A DNA stretch of 64,000 nt from Chloroflexota bacterium (GTDB lineage Bacteria; Chloroflexota; UBA11872; VXOZ01): positions 2,016,001-2,080,000 of the forward strand of contig OY760183.1 in assembly GCA_963663275.1 (NCBI GenBank), given 5' to 3'. Positions 1,814 to 46,553 of this stretch are shown piece by piece. A program made the translations under genes and the position numbers. How positions within the stretch are numbered: the stretch's first letter is position 1; each line of letters starts with the position of its first letter. The notes under the pieces are model-generated. The model was not told the DNA's origin, did not search any database, and saw only the letters and a program-made list of their open reading frames with translations.

Positions 1814-4411
1814 ATGAGCCAAGCGGAGGAGCCGACGACGAGTGCGGTAGAAACCCCGGCGGACGCTCCGGCGGAAGGAGCACCAGCGGAATCCCCGGCG
1901 GCAGCCGCCCCAGTTGATGCCCCGGCGGACGAAACCCAGGCGGAAGCAAGAGCCGTGTCGGAAGAGTACAAGCCGCAGGAATTCGAGCAGGACTGGCAGG
2001 CGCGCTGGCGCGATACGAACCTCTACAAGACCGCAGAAACCGAGGACAGCCGCAAGACGTTCTACTGCCTCGACTTCTTTCCCTATCCTTCGGGTGACGG
2101 CATTTCCGTCGGCCACTGCCATAACTATATCCCCACGGACGTTATTTCCCGTCACATGCGCATGAAGGGGTTCAACGTGCTGCACCCCATGGGCTGGGAC
2201 GCGTTCGGCCTGCCGGCGGAGAACCGCGCCCGCGACACGGGCATCGCGCCCCGGCTGACCGTGGACCAGAACACCGCCAATTACAAGCGCCAACTCGACC
2301 TCATCGGTTGCTCGTTCGACTGGGACCGCGAGATCGACTCCAGCGCGCCGGAATACTACAAGTTCACGCAGTGGCTCTTCCTGTTGATCCACCGCCGGGG
2401 CTTGGCGTATAAGGCCAAGGGCCAACAGTGGTGGTGCCCCTCGTGCCAGACTATCCTGGCGAATGAGCAGGTCCACGACGGCCGCTGCTGGCGCTGCGAT
2501 TCCCTGGTGGAGAAGAAGAGCCTGGAGCAGTGGTATTTCAAGATCACGGACTACGCCGACCGCTTGCTCAATGACTTGGAGAAAATCGACTGGCCGGAAT
2601 CCACCAAGGAGATGCAGCGCAACTGGATTGGGCGCAGCGAGGGCACGGAGGCGGTCTTTCTGACGGAATTCGGCGATGAACTGCGCGTCTTCACTACCCG
2701 CGCGGATACGCTCTTTGGCGCGACCTTCATGGTGCTGGCGCCGGAGCACGAACTGGTGGACAAGCTCACGAAGCCGGAGCAAAAAGAGGCCGTGGACCGC
2801 TACGTGGCCGCCGCCGCGCGCACCGCGGAGACCGAACGCCAGTCTACCGAGCGCGAGAAGACCGGCGTCTTCACCGGCTCCTACGCCGTCAATCCGGTAA
2901 ACGATGAGCACATTCCCATCTGGATCGCCGACTACGTGCTGGTGACCTACGGCACCGGCGCGATCATGGCCGTGCCGGCGCACGATCAGCGCGACTTCGA
3001 GTTTGCGCAGAAGTTCGGCCTGGACGTGCGCGTGGTGGTGCAACCGCCGGACAGCGTGGACTGGGCCGTTGCCGACGCTTATGAAGGCGAGGGCGCGCTG
3101 GTCAATTCCGGACAATTCGACGGTGAAACATCTCCCATAGGTGGGACAAAAATAACGGAGTGGCTGAACGAGCGTGAGTTGGGCGGCGCGAAGGTGCAGT
3201 ACCGCATGAGGGACTGGCTGATTTCGCGCCAGCGCTACTGGGGCGCGCCGATTCCGATGGTGAAGTGCCCCAAGTGCGGCTGGGTGGAGATGCCGACGCC
3301 GCAACTGCCGGTGCTGCTGCCCGAAATCGATGATTTCGAGCCGACCGGCGACGGACGCTCGCCGCTGGCCAAGGTGGGCTCGTTCATGGCCACCACGTGC
3401 CCGGACTGCGGCGGCCCCGCCGAACGCGAGACGGACACCATGGACACCTTCGCGTGCTCCTCGTGGTACTTCCTGCGCTTTGCCGACCCCCACAACGACG
3501 AGTTGCCGTTCGGCCTCGATAAGGCGCGCCACTGGCTGCCGGTTGACCTCTACGTCGGCGGCGCGGAACACGCCACCATGCACCTGATATATGCGCGTTT
3601 CTGGACCAAGGTCATCAAGGACGCCATGCTCATCGACTTCAACGAGCCGTTTACGAAACTGCGGCATCAGGGCGTCGTCCTGGCCCCGGACGGGGTCAGA
3701 ATGTCAAAGAGTCGCGGCAACGTCATCGGCCCGGATGAGATGGTGGATTTGTACGGCGTTGACGCGCTGCGTGTGTATGAACTCTTCATGGGCCCATTCG
3801 ACCAAGACATCAGCTGGAGCACCGAGGGTATTCCCGGCGCGCGCCGCTGGCTGGTGCGCGTTTGGAACATGCTGCTGGGCCGTATCGAGCAAGGCAGCGA
3901 GCCGCTGCCCGTGGAGAAGGCCGAGCCGGAACTGGCGCGCTGGATAAACCGCGTGGTCAAACGCGCCGGCGAGGACATCGACGCGCACAAGTTCAACACC
4001 ATGATCGCCTACTTCATGGAGTTCACCAACTGGCTCTACAAGGTCTACACGCTGGAGTTGGCGGCTACGGATTCCTGGAAGCGGTCCATGGAGCGGTTCC
4101 TCCTGGTTCTCGCGCCGGTTGCCCCTCACCTGGCCGAAGAGATCTGGGAACGCTGGGGGCACGAGTACTCGGTGCACCAGCAGGAGTGGCCGGAATACGA
4201 CGAGGCGCTCATCGAGGAAGAGACCTTCACGCTGGTCGTGCAGGTGAACGGCCGGGTGCGCGACACCATCGAGGCCAGTGTCTCGCTGGATGAAGACGGC
4301 GCCCGCGCGCTGGCGCTGGAGAGCGAGCGCGTGCGGCAGTTCCTGGACGGACAGGAAGTCAAGCTGGTGAAGTATGTGCCCGGACGCCTGATCAACATAG
4401 TGGTTGGCTGA
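1814..4411 (+). CDS. leuS: Leucine--tRNA ligase
   Basis: FPYPSG, HIGH-equivalent SVGH, GWDAFGLPAEN, FTTR..T editing domain, DWLISRQRYWG, RMSKS, C-terminal VPGRLINIV. Confidence 0.97.
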   Translation: MSQAEEPTTSAVETPADAPAEGAPAESPAAAAPVDAPADETQAEARAVSEEYKPQEFEQDWQARWRDTNLYKTAETEDSRKTFYCLDFFPYPSGDGISVGHCHNYIPTDVISRHMRMKGFNVLHPMGWDAFGLPAENRARDTGIAPRLTVDQNTANYKRQLDLIGCSFDWDREIDSSAPEYYKFTQWLFLLIHRRGLAYKAKGQQWWCPSCQTILANEQVHDGRCWRCDSLVEKKSLEQWYFKITDYADRLLNDLEKIDWPESTKEMQRNWIGRSEGTEAVFLTEFGDELRVFTTRADTLFGATFMVLAPEHELVDKLTKPEQKEAVDRYVAAAARTAETERQSTEREKTGVFTGSYAVNPVNDEHIPIWIADYVLVTYGTGAIMAVPAHDQRDFEFAQKFGLDVRVVVQPPDSVDWAVADAYEGEGALVNSGQFDGETSPIGGTKITEWLNERELGGAKVQYRMRDWLISRQRYWGAPIPMVKCPKCGWVEMPTPQLPVLLPEIDDFEPTGDGRSPLAKVGSFMATTCPDCGGPAERETDTMDTFACSSWYFLRFADPHNDELPFGLDKARHWLPVDLYVGGAEHATMHLIYARFWTKVIKDAMLIDFNEPFTKLRHQGVVLAPDGVRMSKSRGNVIGPDEMVDLYGVDALRVYELFMGPFDQDISWSTEGIPGARRWLVRVWNMLLGRIEQGSEPLPVEKAEPELARWINRVVKRAGEDIDAHKFNTMIAYFMEFTNWLYKVYTLELAATDSWKRSMERFLLVLAPVAPHLAEEIWERWGHEYSVHQQEWPEYDEALIEEETFTLVVQVNGRVRDTIEASVSLDEDGARALALESERVRQFLDGQEVKLVKYVPGRLINIVVG

Positions 4412-5094: not shown

Positions 5095-6489
5095 CTAGCG
5101 CGCGCCGGGGATGGCCCCTTCTTGCTTCAGCAGGTCGATGGTGCGGTCGAAAGCGGCCGCGGCTGCGCGCACGTCATCCTCAGTGTGCGCGGTGGAGAGC
5201 ATGCCGCCGTCGCCCATGAGGTCTACGCCGTTGACTTGCAAGCCCCGTTTCATCTTGCCGTAGAGCGCCGCGTCGGCGTCCCGCATGGCGAGGAAGGGCT
5301 TTGCGCCGGCGCCGCCGTAATCCGCAAGGTTCATCTTCTCGTGTGGATTGTGCGGGTTGAAGAGCAGGATGTGGAACATAGAGTACGTGCCGTAGACGCA
5401 GCCGGTTAGGCCGTGGGCGTCCATGACCTGGTTGAATTCGTCGCGCAGCATGGCCGCCAGGTCGTTCACGTGGCGGGCGGGCCAGCCCTCGGCGACGATG
5501 CTCAAGGCGGTTGTGCCGGCGGAGGCCGAGAGCGGGTTGGCGTTGAAAGTGCCCTGGTGGCGAATCTTCTTGCGGGCGTTCCACTCCGGCTCGTCGCGGT
5601 ATTCCAGGTGGGCCAGAATGTCGGCGCGCCCGGCCACCGCGCCGCCAGGCAGGCCGCCGGCCAGGACTTTTGCCAGGCTGGTTAGGTCGGGGATGACGCC
5701 GGTGGCCGCTTGCGCCCCGCCCGGCGCGCAGCGAAAGCCGGTGATAACCTCGTCCATGATGAGCAGTACGCCGTAGTCCAGCGTGATCTTGCGCACGGCC
5801 GCCAGGAAGTCTGGATCGAGGGGGTACGAGGAGTATCCCGCGCCGGTGGGTTCCAAGATGACGGCGGCAATGTCCGGATCATTCCGCAAGACGGCTTCCA
5901 GCCGCTCGACGTCATGCACCGGCAGCACGCGCATCGAGTCGGCGGTACCGGCCGGGACCCCGGCGGGCGGCGGCGCGGGCGGCTCGTCCACCACCACGTA
6001 GTCGTGCCAGCCGTGGAAGTGGTGCTCGAACTTGACGGTCGTGCTCTTGCCGGTAAACGCGCGCGCCAGCCGCAAGCACATCATGGTAGCCTCGGTGCCG
6101 GAGGCGGTAAAGCGCACGCGCTCGGCTGCCGGCACCAGCCGCTGCACCCAGCGACCCCACTCGACTTCGCGTTCGTGCGCCGCGCCGTAGTGGGTGCCGT
6201 GCCGCATCTGCTCACTGACGGCCGCGACGACGGCGGGATGGCCGTGCCCCAGCAGCAACGCGCCGTGTCCCACGAGAAAGTCGATGAAGCGGTTGCCGTC
6301 GAAGTCCCACTTGTGCGCGCCCTGCGCCCGCTCGATGTAAAGCGGGAAGGGCTTCTGGGCGCGGCTGTCGTGGGTCGCGCCATTGGGAAAGATGCCGACG
6401 GCTTCCTGGAAGCGCGCGGCGGAACCGGCGAATTGCCGCGTGAATTGTTCATCGAGCGTCAGCTTGGTAGACTCGACCGTCGTGCTCAT
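5095..6489 (-). CDS. Class-III PLP aminotransferase (glutamate-1-semialdehyde aminomutase-like)
   Basis: SGTEA, FHGWHD, MDEVITGFR, AKVLAGGLPGG, GTFNANP. Confidence 0.9.
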   Translation of the reverse strand: MSTTVESTKLTLDEQFTRQFAGSAARFQEAVGIFPNGATHDSRAQKPFPLYIERAQGAHKWDFDGNRFIDFLVGHGALLLGHGHPAVVAAVSEQMRHGTHYGAAHEREVEWGRWVQRLVPAAERVRFTASGTEATMMCLRLARAFTGKSTTVKFEHHFHGWHDYVVVDEPPAPPPAGVPAGTADSMRVLPVHDVERLEAVLRNDPDIAAVILEPTGAGYSSYPLDPDFLAAVRKITLDYGVLLIMDEVITGFRCAPGGAQAATGVIPDLTSLAKVLAGGLPGGAVAGRADILAHLEYRDEPEWNARKKIRHQGTFNANPLSASAGTTALSIVAEGWPARHVNDLAAMLRDEFNQVMDAHGLTGCVYGTYSMFHILLFNPHNPHEKMNLADYGGAGAKPFLAMRDADAALYGKMKRGLQVNGVDLMGDGGMLSTAHTEDDVRAAAAAFDRTIDLLKQEGAIPGAR

Positions 6490-42741: not shown

Positions 42742-45210
42742 TTGATAAGAGTGCGTTATGCCGCCGCCGTGGCGCTTGGCTGCCTGTGCTTGCTGCTGAC
42801 GGCGTGTGGAGAGGACGAGCCGGCCATCGACGCCGCCGTTGAAGCAACGGCCACCGTTCCCTCGCCGCGCGTCACCCAAACGGCTGCGCCCGCGGACGCG
42901 CCGCCCACGGCCGCGCCGCTCGCGCCCACGCCAACCGAGAAACCGGCGGGGTCGGCGGCCACACCCGACGTTGCCCCCACCGCCGCGCCCACGCCGGATC
43001 CGCTGCCTACGCAGGCGCCGTCACCAACGGCCCTGCCGCTGTCCACGCCGGCGCCGGCGGCTTCACCGGAGGCTGCTCCCGCGCCCGCGGCGACCCCGGT
43101 TCTCGCCAACGTGTCGGCGCTTCGTTTCACCGGAGTGCGCGTGCTGCTCAACGAGCCGAGCCAGGTGCAGGCGGTCTTCTCGCTCCGCGACCAAGAGGGC
43201 AACCCCGTGATTCTGCCGGCGGCGGAGTTGCAAGGCGCAACGCGCATCTACGAGCGCGGCGGCGACGCGGCGGCGTGGGAGGAAATCGACTACACGGAGA
43301 CCAACTTCTTCGTGCACTCCGCGGAGCGCTTCGCGTTGGAGGTCGTGTTCGTCCTGGACTTCACGCGCAGCATGACCACCTGGCGGCTGCCCGACGGGAC
43401 GGCCGGCAGCGCGCTCATGCGCCAGGCGTTGGCGCGCGCGCTGGAGCGCCTGCCGGAGGCCCATCGCGTTGGGGTCGCGGCCTTTCACGATCGCAGCGCG
43501 GAGCCGGTGATACTGGCTTTTCCCACCACGGACCGGGACCTGATACGCACTGCCGTGGCGCAGTTTGCCGAATCGGGTTTCGACTCCGGTTCCAGCCGCC
43601 TCTGGGACGCCGTGGCGCGTGGACTTGCAATGTTCCAAGCGGAGGAAGACGCCTCACTTGACATAAGCCGCGCCTTGGTCTTTCTCTCGGACGGGCGGGA
43701 CACCAGCAGCCTGCGCACCCGCGACGACGTGATCCAACTGGCGCAGGCTGGCGGCGTGCAACTCTACCCGCTCGGCCTGGGGGACGTTTACCAGGAGCCG
43801 GAATTGCGGTCTTTGGCGACGGCGACGAACGGCGCGTACTACGCGGTGGACGCATTGGCGCGGCTGGAAGCGCAGTTCAATGCGTTGGTGAACGACCTTG
43901 CCGGCCAGTATAAGCTCAGCTACACCACCCTCCGCCGCGGCGGAGAGTACGCGGTGCGCATCGAGACCACGTTGCAGGGGGTGACCGGCGTCTTTACCAG
44001 CGGTGCGCTGCCCGTCGGCGACGTGTACAGCCCGGATACGCAGGGGCGCATCGCGGTGGATCCGCCGACGCTTGACGTGGAAGAGCAGACCGCCGCCACG
44101 TTTGTGCGCGCACTCCACGTGCCGCGCAACATCCAGCACTTCCGCTTTACAGTGCCTCTGGACCGTCCCGTTGAAGTCTCACTGGTGCCGGCGCGCGCGG
44201 GCGGCCTGCTGGCAGGGTGGGAACTCTCCCCGCCGGATGAAGCGGGTTATTGGAGGGCCGAGGGGCCGGCGCCGCTGTCGTTTGGCAACTTCGGCTTGCT
44301 CTTCAAGGTAGTTGTGACCGGCGTGAGCGAGACGGACTTTGCCATTCCCATCGTCTTCGACAACAGCGGCTATGGCGGCAATAAGCAATTCGTCGTCGTC
44401 TCCGGCGGCGCCGAACGCCTGGCGCGGCTCGCCTTCGCCAGCCTGCGCGACGAGAATTGGGAACTCTACGCGGTGTACGCGGACGGCAGCGGCTTGACGC
44501 GCCTGACTAACGATCCGGCCAACGACGTGGCGCCCAACTGGTCGCCGGACGGACGCCGCATCGCGTTCGCCAGCAACCGCGCTGGCAACTTCGACATTTT
44601 CGTGATGAACGCCGACGGCGAGAAAGTTACGCAATTGACGGACGCTCCCGGCGACGACTTTGCGCCCCGCTGGTCGCCCGACGGCCGCCGGCTGGCGTTC
44701 TACAGCGAACGGGAAGGCAACGTGGACATCTACGTGATGAACGCCGACGGCAGCGGGCAAACGCGGCTCACGTTCGACCGGGGGCGCGAACTCACGCCCT
44801 CTTGGTCGCCCGACGGGGTGAAGATCGCCTTTACCAGTGACCGGGAACGGAACTTCGACATCTTCACGATAAACGCCGACGGCAGCGCGTTGACCCAGGT
44901 GACCAGCGACCGGGCGGCGGATACGGCGCCGGCTTGGTCGCCGGACGGGCGCAGACTGGCCTTCACGAGCAAGCGCTCCGGCAACTGGGAGGTCTACACG
45001 ATCAACGCCGACGGCAGCGGGCTGACCCAGGTGACGACGCACCCGGCCGACGACTTCGCTCCCGCGTGGTCGGCGGACGGCAGCCGCCTGGCATTCTACA
45101 GCATCAGGAATCTCAACTACGAGATCTACGTTATGAACCTGGCCGACGGTTCCCTCACGCGCCTGACCGAGCACCCGGCGCTGGACGCCGATCCGGCGTG
45201 GTCGCCGTAG
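42742..45210 (+). CDS. Lipoprotein: Pro-rich stalk + VWA domain + TolB-like PD40 beta-propeller
   Basis: Lipobox LTAC; VFVLDFTRS and FLSDG (MIDAS-like); six P.WSpDG repeats. Confidence 0.85.
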   Translation: MIRVRYAAAVALGCLCLLLTACGEDEPAIDAAVEATATVPSPRVTQTAAPADAPPTAAPLAPTPTEKPAGSAATPDVAPTAAPTPDPLPTQAPSPTALPLSTPAPAASPEAAPAPAATPVLANVSALRFTGVRVLLNEPSQVQAVFSLRDQEGNPVILPAAELQGATRIYERGGDAAAWEEIDYTETNFFVHSAERFALEVVFVLDFTRSMTTWRLPDGTAGSALMRQALARALERLPEAHRVGVAAFHDRSAEPVILAFPTTDRDLIRTAVAQFAESGFDSGSSRLWDAVARGLAMFQAEEDASLDISRALVFLSDGRDTSSLRTRDDVIQLAQAGGVQLYPLGLGDVYQEPELRSLATATNGAYYAVDALARLEAQFNALVNDLAGQYKLSYTTLRRGGEYAVRIETTLQGVTGVFTSGALPVGDVYSPDTQGRIAVDPPTLDVEEQTAATFVRALHVPRNIQHFRFTVPLDRPVEVSLVPARAGGLLAGWELSPPDEAGYWRAEGPAPLSFGNFGLLFKVVVTGVSETDFAIPIVFDNSGYGGNKQFVVVSGGAERLARLAFASLRDENWELYAVYADGSGLTRLTNDPANDVAPNWSPDGRRIAFASNRAGNFDIFVMNADGEKVTQLTDAPGDDFAPRWSPDGRRLAFYSEREGNVDIYVMNADGSGQTRLTFDRGRELTPSWSPDGVKIAFTSDRERNFDIFTINADGSALTQVTSDRAADTAPAWSPDGRRLAFTSKRSGNWEVYTINADGSGLTQVTTHPADDFAPAWSADGSRLAFYSIRNLNYEIYVMNLADGSLTRLTEHPALDADPAWSP

Positions 45211-45341
45211 CCAGGATAGACGGAGGAGGTTCATGGCAGGCCAACGAGACCCGAGTAAGGTTACACAAAGATAAAGAGTCTTACACGTTCCTCGCCGTGT
45301 AGATTGTTTCCACTACAGAAAGAGTGACGTGAGAGTCAAAT

Positions 45342-46112
45342 CTAGCCCTGGGCAAATCCAAGATACTCGGCTAGTTCTTTGTGCTCGATGACTATGTTGG
45401 TGTCTGTTACCCGGTTCAATTCCCTGGCTCCCCCAGGAAGCAACTTCCCGCTCCGTTCCTTGAATACGACGTTAGCAACCAGTTTTCCATAATCCTTGAT
45501 AAGCTCGATTGCCGGAACATAGTCTTGATCTCCTGAAACAATCACTGCCACGTCGTAAATGTCCTTGAGGGAGGCCATGTCACAGGCTAGCTTGACGTCT
45601 ACCGACTTTTCTTCACCTAATCTGCCTTCAAACAGGTTGTACCGGACAACACCCGACCGCCGAAACTCTATCGCATCATGTTGAGCAGCAATGCCGTCTT
45701 GCACCTTAATCTGCCCGTCGAACCGGCGCTGCACATTCGCTTGCTGCTCCTTCAAGAGTTGCACCATTGCTTGCATCTTGCTGTTCAACTCTTCGCTCTC
45801 GGTGATTTGATCTAACTCTGCTCTATAGCTGGGATGCTTTGACAATACAGTCCGCAATCTGCTCGGGTCTCTCGCAAGCTTATTCAGACTGTACGGCCAG
45901 AAGGAAACGGCCCGAACCACATACCAGTACGTCCTAACGCGCAGGCCGCCGTAGCGGGGAGCACAGGCAAGTCGCTCAAAGAACTGGGTCCATGCAGCTT
46001 GCCTTGGCAAGTAGTTTATCTCTCGGAACTCACTCTTGAATAGCCTAACAATCGAGTGGCGAAAGTTCTCACCATCTACAAATACACAGACTCGGTTCAT
46101 CGCATTCACCAC
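45342..46112 (-). CDS. NYN domain (LabA/DUF88, PIN-like) putative ribonuclease (start may be ATG 46100)
   Basis: VFVDGENF, EKSVDVKLACD, IVSGDQDYVP..E.....GK; more AT-rich than neighbours. Confidence 0.88.
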   Translation of the reverse strand: MVNAMNRVCVFVDGENFRHSIVRLFKSEFREINYLPRQAAWTQFFERLACAPRYGGLRVRTYWYVVRAVSFWPYSLNKLARDPSRLRTVLSKHPSYRAELDQITESEELNSKMQAMVQLLKEQQANVQRRFDGQIKVQDGIAAQHDAIEFRRSGVVRYNLFEGRLGEEKSVDVKLACDMASLKDIYDVAVIVSGDQDYVPAIELIKDYGKLVANVVFKERSGKLLPGGARELNRVTDTNIVIEHKELAEYLGFAQG

Positions 46113-46241
46113 ATAGAAAGAAGCGGCGAACCCGCAGTTCGCCGCTTACATAGGCAGCGAACGTGTAGGTTCGCCGCGAAACACGGCGAACCCGCAGTCC
46201 GCCGCAAATGATTCAGCCTAGGAACACCTAGACGCTTCTAC
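46113..46241 (-). ncRNA. Candidate structured leader/antitoxin RNA: four hairpins, three of them repeats, the last terminator-like
   Basis: Stems at 46121-46147, 46154-46177, 46183-46205 and ~46216-46233; every apparent mismatch is G-U on the minus strand. Confidence 0.6.
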
Positions 46242-46247
46242 GTCCAC

Positions 46248-46276
46248 ATGTTACTTGAAGCCGGCTCATGAGTCAA
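46248..46276 (-). promoter_or_regulatory. Sigma70-type promoter TTGACT-N17-TAACAT for the hairpin leader and NYN gene
   Basis: -35 at 46276-46271, -10 at 46253-46248, exact 17-nt spacer. Confidence 0.7.
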
Positions 46277-46553
46277 GGACTTGCTAGTCTCTTCGCAAGA
46301 CGTGGGACACTTCCATCTTCTTGGCTGGATGTTCAACAATGAGTTTGCTTCTTCTCACGCGCTGACAACTCTTGCGAAACTCTCCAGTTCGTTGAACTAA
46401 CGAGGCCACCGAGGAGACCTGACTGGCGGACTGAACTATCTCTCAGCCTTCGTTTCGTGATACCGTATACTGCGACTGCTTTGCATTACGGGGAACCTAT
46501 TCTTCCCCTTTACGATAGTTTGAGCACACGCGCGCACGAAAGAGGATGGACTC

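Follow-up and report, generated by a model that had tools for sequence, protein, structure and literature searches.

The Escherichia coli genes rnc, rne and pnp have autoregulatory 5′ leader hairpins, and the nuclease Regnase-1 (ZC3H12A) targets a stem–loop of its own transcript. The LabA-like NYN proteins form a very large group of nucleases for which, to our knowledge, there is no known substrate. In the PIN-like classification (PMC5499597) this LabA-like group is entered as ‘function unknown’. Type III toxin–antitoxin loci, i.e. ToxIN, CptIN and TenpIN, are defined in PMC5086642 by a promoter, a structured non-coding RNA, a Rho-independent terminator and an endoribonuclease gene, with an RNA unit number that varies and an RNA that co-evolves with the protein. 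We analysed a 64000 nt stretch of a Chloroflexota genome (contig OY760183.1; referred to below as the window), in which the gene for a predicted NYN nuclease (45342..46100, minus strand) follows a leader RNA with four hairpins, the whole lying in a 1.2 kb cassette. On comparison of its sequence with those of its homologues, the leader in the window is a locally expanded and divergent copy of an RNA that accompanies this NYN family, no other partner of which is conserved.

In layout, as read from sequence alone, the locus resembles the type III systems, having a promoter, a structured RNA, a terminator-like hairpin and a predicted nuclease in the same order, and here too loci differ in how many RNA units they have and the RNA co-evolves with the protein. 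It differs from them in that the nuclease is of the NYN (PIN-like) and not the ToxN-type fold, in that its RNA is a pair of hairpins that differ in their stems but share a 5-nt loop, whereas type III RNAs consist of 34–45 nt tandem repeats with pseudoknots, and in that the NYN family was not found in the plasmid, phage or viral-contig collections searched. As the layout and terminator match but the toxin family does not, we describe the locus as type III-like in layout and do not file it as a member. The original prediction of a type III-like system is partly supported: it stands for its layout, for an RNA on the gene's sense strand and for its linkage to the NYN clade, but there is no homology with ToxN, CptN or TenpN and tandem repeats are not the norm. 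Like rnc, rne, pnp and Regnase-1, the nuclease transcript carries a stem–loop that its own product would recognize, but here the second hairpin is terminator-like and precedes the ribosome-binding site, the leader moves with the gene across more than ten phyla, and the RNA is a separate divergent unit in one clade and survives gene loss, which would be unexpected of a pure cis leader. The protein shares its fold and acidic active-site residues with the LabA-like NYN proteins (PF01936, COG1432, structure 2qip) and the NYN domain of MARF1, but has an insert of ~90 residues and its own set of conserved aromatic residues and arginines, and the accessible parts of the classification literature searched describe no RNA partner for LabA-like NYN proteins.

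A database search with the window protein gave 995 relatives at E values up to 0.001, and the 119 listed, its own protein apart, were 48–66% identical with it. With one genome taken per species, 154 stretches encode a relative, and the family counts given below use the best 80 of these loci, which belong to Chloroflexota, Planctomycetota, Patescibacteria, Nitrospirota, Thermodesulfobacteriota, Acidobacteriota, Pseudomonadota, Binatota, WOR-3, Omnitrophota and others. A covariance model of the leader, termed R1, matches directly 5′ of the NYN gene and on the strand of the gene in 64 of the 80 loci (43 that served as seeds of the model and 21 non-seeds) and on the opposite strand in three more, i.e. 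in 67 loci in all from more than ten phyla. Eleven of the remaining 13 loci make up one Patescibacteria-type clade (support 99) with a two-hairpin variant that R1 does not detect, in which a promoter is followed by the hairpin CUCGGA-AUUG-UCCGAG, an AAUAC linker and a long terminator-like hairpin, and in which 12 of 17 pairs show a compensatory change; the other two loci, L060 and L083, have no clear motif. The covarying hairpins that the original prediction anticipated upstream of homologues are therefore present in 67 of the 80 loci, with the variant in 11 more. In addition, a metagenome scan gave 11 further loci, eight of which matched R1 and three of which had the Patescibacteria variant as judged by eye. 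Among the R1-matched loci the gene that goes with the leader is always NYN, and R1 found one strong copy per genome in five of five complete genomes and no further copy elsewhere in the window genome at E below 0.1. No conserved protein-coding neighbour was found among the 126 flanking proteins of the 80 loci, some 13 of which are of mobile or defence type. The family tree has a largely vertical look within Dehalococcoidia, Planctomycetota and Patescibacteria, and no family member was found in IMG/VR contigs, PLSDB plasmids or INPHARED phages. One locus departs in its spacing: on a contig of Candidatus Magnetobacterium casense (L070) the leader (3617-3696, 69.4 bits) lies ~300 nt upstream of the point at which the NYN match starts, at residue 14, and the start of this gene may be interrupted or misassembled.

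The usual form of the leader comprises a promoter, a first hairpin of 7–8 bp, a linker of ~12 nt, a second, G+C-rich hairpin of 9–12 bp and a T-run ~22 nt before the start codon. The two hairpins are ~31 nt apart and have different stems, the loop alone being common to them, and both loops read TGCGT (UGCGU in the RNA) almost throughout the hairpins listed upstream of the 80 homologues. To examine the structure we aligned 43 leaders with MAFFT, i.e. in an alignment not fitted to structure, and derived the helices with RNAalifold, which returned two helices with 16 pairs, 13 of which have changes on both sides. Paired cells amounted to 98.5%, as against 87.9% (S.D. 0.7) in column shuffles, none of 500 of which was as high, and 38–51% with slid partners. 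Among the 687 cells there were 78 G-U or U-G combinations and a single A-C, and this asymmetry places the structure in the sense-strand RNA and not in the DNA. These comparisons of sequence clearly point to selection on the structure of the sense-strand RNA, in agreement with the original prediction, which had argued for selection on RNA over DNA palindromy from the window alone. No pseudoknot was predicted by RNAalifold, although this program does not model pseudoknots. In a set of 72 rows the loop is exactly UGCGU in 43 for hairpin 1 and in 42 for hairpin 2, and loop 2 departs from it in 18 of the 29 rows with a departed loop 1, compared with 12 of the other 43, the rows being kin and not independent. 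UGCGG loops recur in other clades, and the linker is AUA-rich, with GAUA in 21 of the 72 rows, compared with 3.9 on average after shuffling.

In 43 of the 67 motif-bearing loci a promoter that matches the consensus at nine or more of 12 positions precedes hairpin 1 by no more than 57 nt, as against two of 67 after shuffling, and these promoter positions put hairpin 1 at the predicted 5′ end of the transcript. At least five T residues within the 9 nt after hairpin 2 were present in 54 of the 80 loci. The order of promoter, structured RNA, terminator-like hairpin and nuclease read earlier from the window is thus the norm of the family. Two hairpins are the rule, with three in L012 and four in the window. 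In L012 (3880-3975) it is hairpin 1 that is duplicated, and L068 has an additional hairpin 1-like stem with the loop UACGU (~3824-3842), ~90 nt further upstream.

The leader in the window starts from a σ70-like promoter on the minus strand (46248..46276), with the −35 element TTGACT at 46276-46271, a 17-nt spacer and the −10 element TAACAT at 46253-46248; this is the promoter of the original prediction, and a consensus scan picked it independently with 9 of 12 matches. Hairpin 1 (46216..46233, minus strand; gucuagg-uguu-ccuaggc) has 7 bp with one G-U and the loop UGUU, aligns to positions 13-31 of R1 and is the homologue of the family hairpin 1, whose usual loop is UGCGU. It is followed on the same strand by three related stems. 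Hairpin 2a (46183..46205; gcggcggac-ugcgg-guucgccgu) has 9 bp with two G-U pairs and the loop UGCGG and aligns to hairpin 2 of R1. Hairpin 2b (46154..46177; gcggcgaac-cuacac-guucgcugc) is an extra hairpin 2 stem, a palindrome with one mismatch, with 9 bp, one G-U and the loop CUACAC. Hairpin 2c (46115..46147 including its CUUUCU tail, the stem–loop being 46147-46121; aagcggcgaac-ugcgg-guucgccgcuu) is a perfect stem of 11-12 bp, again with the loop UGCGG, was scored as terminator-like in the consensus scan and forms the predicted end of the leader RNA; its stem–loop is a 95% direct repeat of 2a (22 nt, 60-nt spacing). The four deviations from complementarity are all G-U on the sense strand, and the linker CUAUGU is present after 2b and 2c, both as first described. 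What had to be revised is the 8-nt gap between the last hairpin and the open reading frame, as the homologues and the database copy start at ATG 46100 and not at GTG 46112, so that hairpin 2c ends 20 nt before the start codon; a Shine–Dalgarno-like GGUGA (46106..46110, minus strand) lies 5 nt before this ATG, where homologues have a sequence resembling GGAGG. The predicted fold of the sense RNA has an energy of −79.9 kcal/mol, compared with −54 on average for shuffles (z −6.05), none of 200 of which was as good, and the plus strand also folds well (z −6.35).

R1 scores hairpins 1 and 2a together at 24.4 bits (E 2.8e-5) and the pair 2b and 2c (46110-46174) at 21.6 bits. As the nearest relatives, in the same genus, carry the plain form with a single GCGGCGAAC-UGCGU-GUUCGCCGC hairpin, sequence comparison makes the window leader a form in which hairpin 2 is triplicated, its loops are changed to UGCGG and loop 1 is shortened to UGUU. 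The repeated hairpins of the original prediction are therefore real, but their repetition is a local expansion, the family norm being two different stems with the same loop. Loop 1 of the window lacks CG, and the two UGCGG loops that remain, in 2a and 2c, would fit a need for two loops. We also observed that hairpins 2a–2c provide six near-identical stem arms, so that pairing is possible between the 3′ arm of one hairpin and the 5′ arm of the next (46095-46260, minus strand), and the minimum-energy fold of the window leader uses such cross-pairings. Cross-pairing would compete with the terminator hairpin and is possibly an attenuator peculiar to this genome, a single case.

The protein encoded behind this leader has 252 residues and matches the Pfam family NYN (PF01936) over residues 95-218 with 48 bits (cut-off 24.2, E 2.4e-12); a Pfam scan at E up to 0.1 gave this match and a weak one to spectrin only. 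The motifs DGEN, EKSVD and SGDQD are all present, and in an alignment of 31 family members D9 is nearly invariant and D168, D191, D193 and E164 are invariant, all of them being found in the window protein. The predicted structure has a predicted local distance difference test score of 92.1 and a predicted template modelling score of 0.87, its best Foldseek match is 2qip (E 1.9e-5), and VIA-align gave Z values of 16.6 with LabA-like 2qip (root-mean-square deviation 3.2, 156 residues aligned) and 15.1 with the MARF1 NYN domain (5yaa), the next being 8.2. From sequence and model, it is a protein of NYN fold with intact acidic residues and a predicted nuclease, so that its first assignment holds. 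The family-specific insert of ~90 residues (roughly 60-150) includes a 39-residue helix in the model, and the aromatic and Arg positions particular to the family are strongly conserved. Among proteins of solved structure, a sequence search at E up to 1 brought up no sensible relative. PADLOC returned partial matches only, to HEC-09 (E 2.1e-8, 45 residues) and to NYN, which do not amount to membership. A homodimer prediction, aimed at explaining the two identical loops, gave no answer (score 0.02) and counts neither for nor against a dimer. In several genomes of the class there is also a second, distant NYN paralogue family, 29–34% identical and in frames of 290–420 residues (sites G009:C68:11970-12608, G004:C1:186279-186917, G011:C3:111240-111878, G060:C13:16526-17170 and G014:C387:5400-6038), and the R1 motif was not found at the four paralogue loci searched (L097-L100).

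Two sets of loci separate the RNA from its gene. The three loci with R1 on the opposite strand (L045, L046 and L064) form one Planctomycetota clade with support 100 in a quick tree of 76 rows that did not include L028, L038 and L070, nor L039 and L081, which were too short. Here the complete motif, with its U-run, lies 120–200 nt upstream of NYN and shows compensatory changes within the clade; L045 has a promoter-like site for it, and in L064 it points into the end of the convergent dnaN gene and so leads no gene. The 11 metagenome loci mentioned above came from a scan with the three clade proteins, and they were all at most 57% identical and none inverted, so the count stays at three. The arrangement suggests, from these sequences, that the RNA acts as a partner, beyond the role of a leader. 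The 5′ region of NYN in L064 (~3925-3950, plus strand) also holds a hairpin 1-like stem–loop, ggcuugg-ugugu-caagugcc, on the strand of the gene, which hints at an inverted duplication of the leader as the source of the inverted unit.

The second set came from a survey of 98 genomes of the window's class, in which the motif was found at E 1e-6 or better in seven, to which the weaker copy of the window is added. Among these eight leader-bearing loci NYN is intact only in G000 and G007. G005 and G002 have one 3′ deletion in common and stop codons in what remains, different 3′ deletions have left 20–25 codons in G011 and G034, NYN of G026 ends after residue ~198, and G020 has a frameshift and an internal deletion; all six retain promoter and leader, the latter at 48–67 bits. 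No remnant with only the 3′ part of NYN reached E 1e-6 or better when these 98 genomes were searched at the protein level. This one-sided decay represents five independent events, with a rough chance probability of ~0.05, and target size favours damage in the open reading frame. Leaders that outlive their gene are suggestive, although not proof, of an RNA that works in its own right.

Our preferred reading, to which we give about even weight for and against, is that the leader is a terminated small RNA recognized by its own NYN nuclease, the two forming a feedback or titration pair. Transcription is predicted to start at the consensus-like promoter a few nucleotides before hairpin 1, and most transcripts would stop at hairpin 2 to give a stable RNA of ~75 nt (~125 nt in the window with its three copies of hairpin 2), whereas read-through would give the nuclease mRNA. 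The NYN protein itself would recognize the UGCG(U/G) loops, and the RNA would throttle expression in cis and, in trans, bind, titrate or be cut by NYN. Such a pair would be self-contained and able to move between hosts without a host regulator; since the cassette crosses phyla without any other conserved gene, the reader of the loops should be either self-encoded or universal. Several observations weigh against this proposal. Binding or cutting of the leader by NYN is something we infer from one line of sequence evidence, their exclusive co-inheritance. The loops of the Patescibacteria variant are AUUG or AAUA, hence UGCGU is not universal, and the stand-alone arrangement comes from one clade of three loci. 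No conserved alternative (antiterminator) pairing was predicted among the 43 aligned leaders, and the window copy itself matches R1 weakly and has a poor U-run, CUUUCU.

The hairpins could instead act on the DNA, as miniature inverted-repeat transposable element-like or repetitive extragenic palindromic (REP) repeats or as operator sites for a DNA-binding protein, and the near-perfect stems and the folding of the plus strand would suit this; however, the complementary strand would have mismatches wherever the RNA has its G-U pairs (78 against one A-C), a U-run follows on one side and not on the other, each genome has a single copy of the element and no DNA-binding gene is conserved nearby, and we regard this explanation as barely credible. 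A purely cis role in mRNA housekeeping is easier to entertain, but still unlikely. Hairpin 1 would be a 5′ stabilizer, as its place at the predicted 5′ end of the transcript would allow, and the terminator-like hairpin 2 a leaky terminator that keeps a potentially harmful nuclease low, with RNA polymerase and the general RNases of the host as their only readers and NYN recognizing neither, and the lack of a conserved alternative pairing agrees with this. Near-invariant loops on freely varying stems are, however, needless for a stabilizer or a terminator, the inverted clade keeps the structure and its compensatory changes while leading no gene, and the leader is kept where the NYN gene is gone. 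In the guanidine-II (mini-ykkC) RNAs a pair of hairpins, each with an ACGR loop, precedes guanidine-related genes. On this plan, the leader would be a small-molecule sensor in which two hairpins join by kissing loops, the GC and CG dinucleotides of the loops being self-complementary, and tandem hairpins with the same conserved loop, variable stems and a variable linker are what that family would lead one to expect. A sensor is nevertheless very improbable: there is no Rfam match, that family included, the loops read UGCGU and not ACGR, the variant UGUGU/UGUGU of L052 breaks the self-complementary GC, the associated gene is always a nuclease and never a transporter or metabolic gene, and the inverted clade regulates no gene.

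The remaining alternative, which we consider possible but doubtful, is a new class of RNA-antitoxin (type III-like) system, in which a toxic NYN is neutralized by the abundant terminated hairpin RNA, possibly after processing, the whole acting as an addiction or abortive-infection module. The family layout agrees with the type III definition in PMC5086642, hairpin-unit number varies between two and four, one clade has a stand-alone divergent RNA unit, six of the eight loci in the class keep promoter and leader with NYN deleted or broken, the distribution is patchy (two intact genes among 17 genomes of the genus), and the AT-shifted cassette occupies a variable site that has other cargo in relatives. 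Were there such a class, and we hold this no more firmly, it would span more than ten mostly uncultured phyla and be marked by paired UGCG-loop hairpins, toxin-first decay with orphan antitoxin RNAs left behind and, in one lineage, an RNA uncoupled as a divergent gene of its own. Against this stand the NYN fold in place of ToxN, CptN or TenpN, hairpins that are not sequence repeats and have no predicted pseudoknot, the absence of members from PLSDB, INPHARED and IMG/VR, the low share of mobile or defence-type neighbours, the apparently largely vertical inheritance in Dehalococcoidia, Planctomycetota and Patescibacteria, and the small number of decay events in what is also the larger target. 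In addition, the source on HEC-09, the sole NYN defence candidate that we found in print, reports protection against no phage tested (bioRxiv 10.1101/2024.01.29.577857), and its likeness to the window protein is confined to the 45-residue stretch.

A dedicated covarying RNA travels with one LabA-like family and is therefore a concrete candidate ligand or substrate, the biochemistry of which is directly testable. If the RNA neutralizes the nuclease, the RNA-antitoxin systems would gain a toxin fold and an RNA architecture that are both new to them, and their range would then include Chloroflexota, Planctomycetota and Patescibacteria as well as further uncultured groups; if the pair serves feedback only, the leader is still a new and widespread leader or small-RNA motif missing from Rfam 15. 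What is new here is the majority form of the leader, seen beyond Patescibacteria, together with its inverted clade and its orphan copies.

Two other identities for the hairpins were considered and rejected. With up to two mismatches the palindrome occurs at 14 sites in the 3.53-Mb genome, compared with eight for a backwards control, and only this locus has it at zero or one mismatch: its three clustered sites have 0, 1 and 2 mismatches and the 11 others all have two. These counts and the single copy found by R1 bear out the earlier view that the repeat is not a REP. As to known RNA families, there was no Rfam 15 match, either in the window between 44500 and 47500 or in eight homologue loci, the best overlap with the window leader being Xoo2 at 20.6 bits (gathering 45, E 0.64), and in the eight loci only sroE touched the leader region, at 24.8–25.4 bits (gathering 51). 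No NYN-associated leader RNA was found in the literature searched, including PMC5737381, supplements, where surveys keep their motif lists, lying outside this search. The leader is thus apparently an undescribed, widespread small RNA. In the locus of the nearest relative (L005) we also noted an unrelated S-adenosylmethionine riboswitch (5887-6005, 73.7 bits), ~1.1 kb downstream of NYN.

The cassette (45211..46445) is AT-shifted and inserted between two genes syntenic across the genus, as judged by breaks in homology and by base composition. All 16 other genomes of the genus have conserved flanks at this site, homology stopping at 45210 and restarting near 46445, and its G+C content is 50–53% against 62–70% in the flanks, which extends to the whole cassette the AT shift first noted for the gene. 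On the minus strand it contains, in order, the promoter, the four hairpins and the NYN gene, and within the genus the window genome alone has a NYN cassette at this site. A tblastn search for a fragment of the NYN gene upstream of the promoter, prompted by inverted repeats I2 and I3, found none. The same spacer is 157–240 bp of unrelated DNA in three genomes of the genus (G010, G011 and G008) and holds 1.5–1.9 kb of other cargo in others. This spacer separates a TolB/VWA-like gene from an aminotransferase gene and varies within the genus (G007, G001 and G004; loci L119, L120 and L121): its cargo in G007 is an HTH (helix–turn–helix)-Peptidase_M78 gene with a gene for an unknown 221-residue protein, in G001 a pentapeptide-repeat protein and in G004 an IS30-like transposase. 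Between the convergent NYN and TolB/VWA-like genes of the window lies a further hairpin (45281..45302, both strands), which was found on the plus strand in the terminator scan and has a T-rich tail on the minus strand, and from its sequence it is possibly a two-way terminator.

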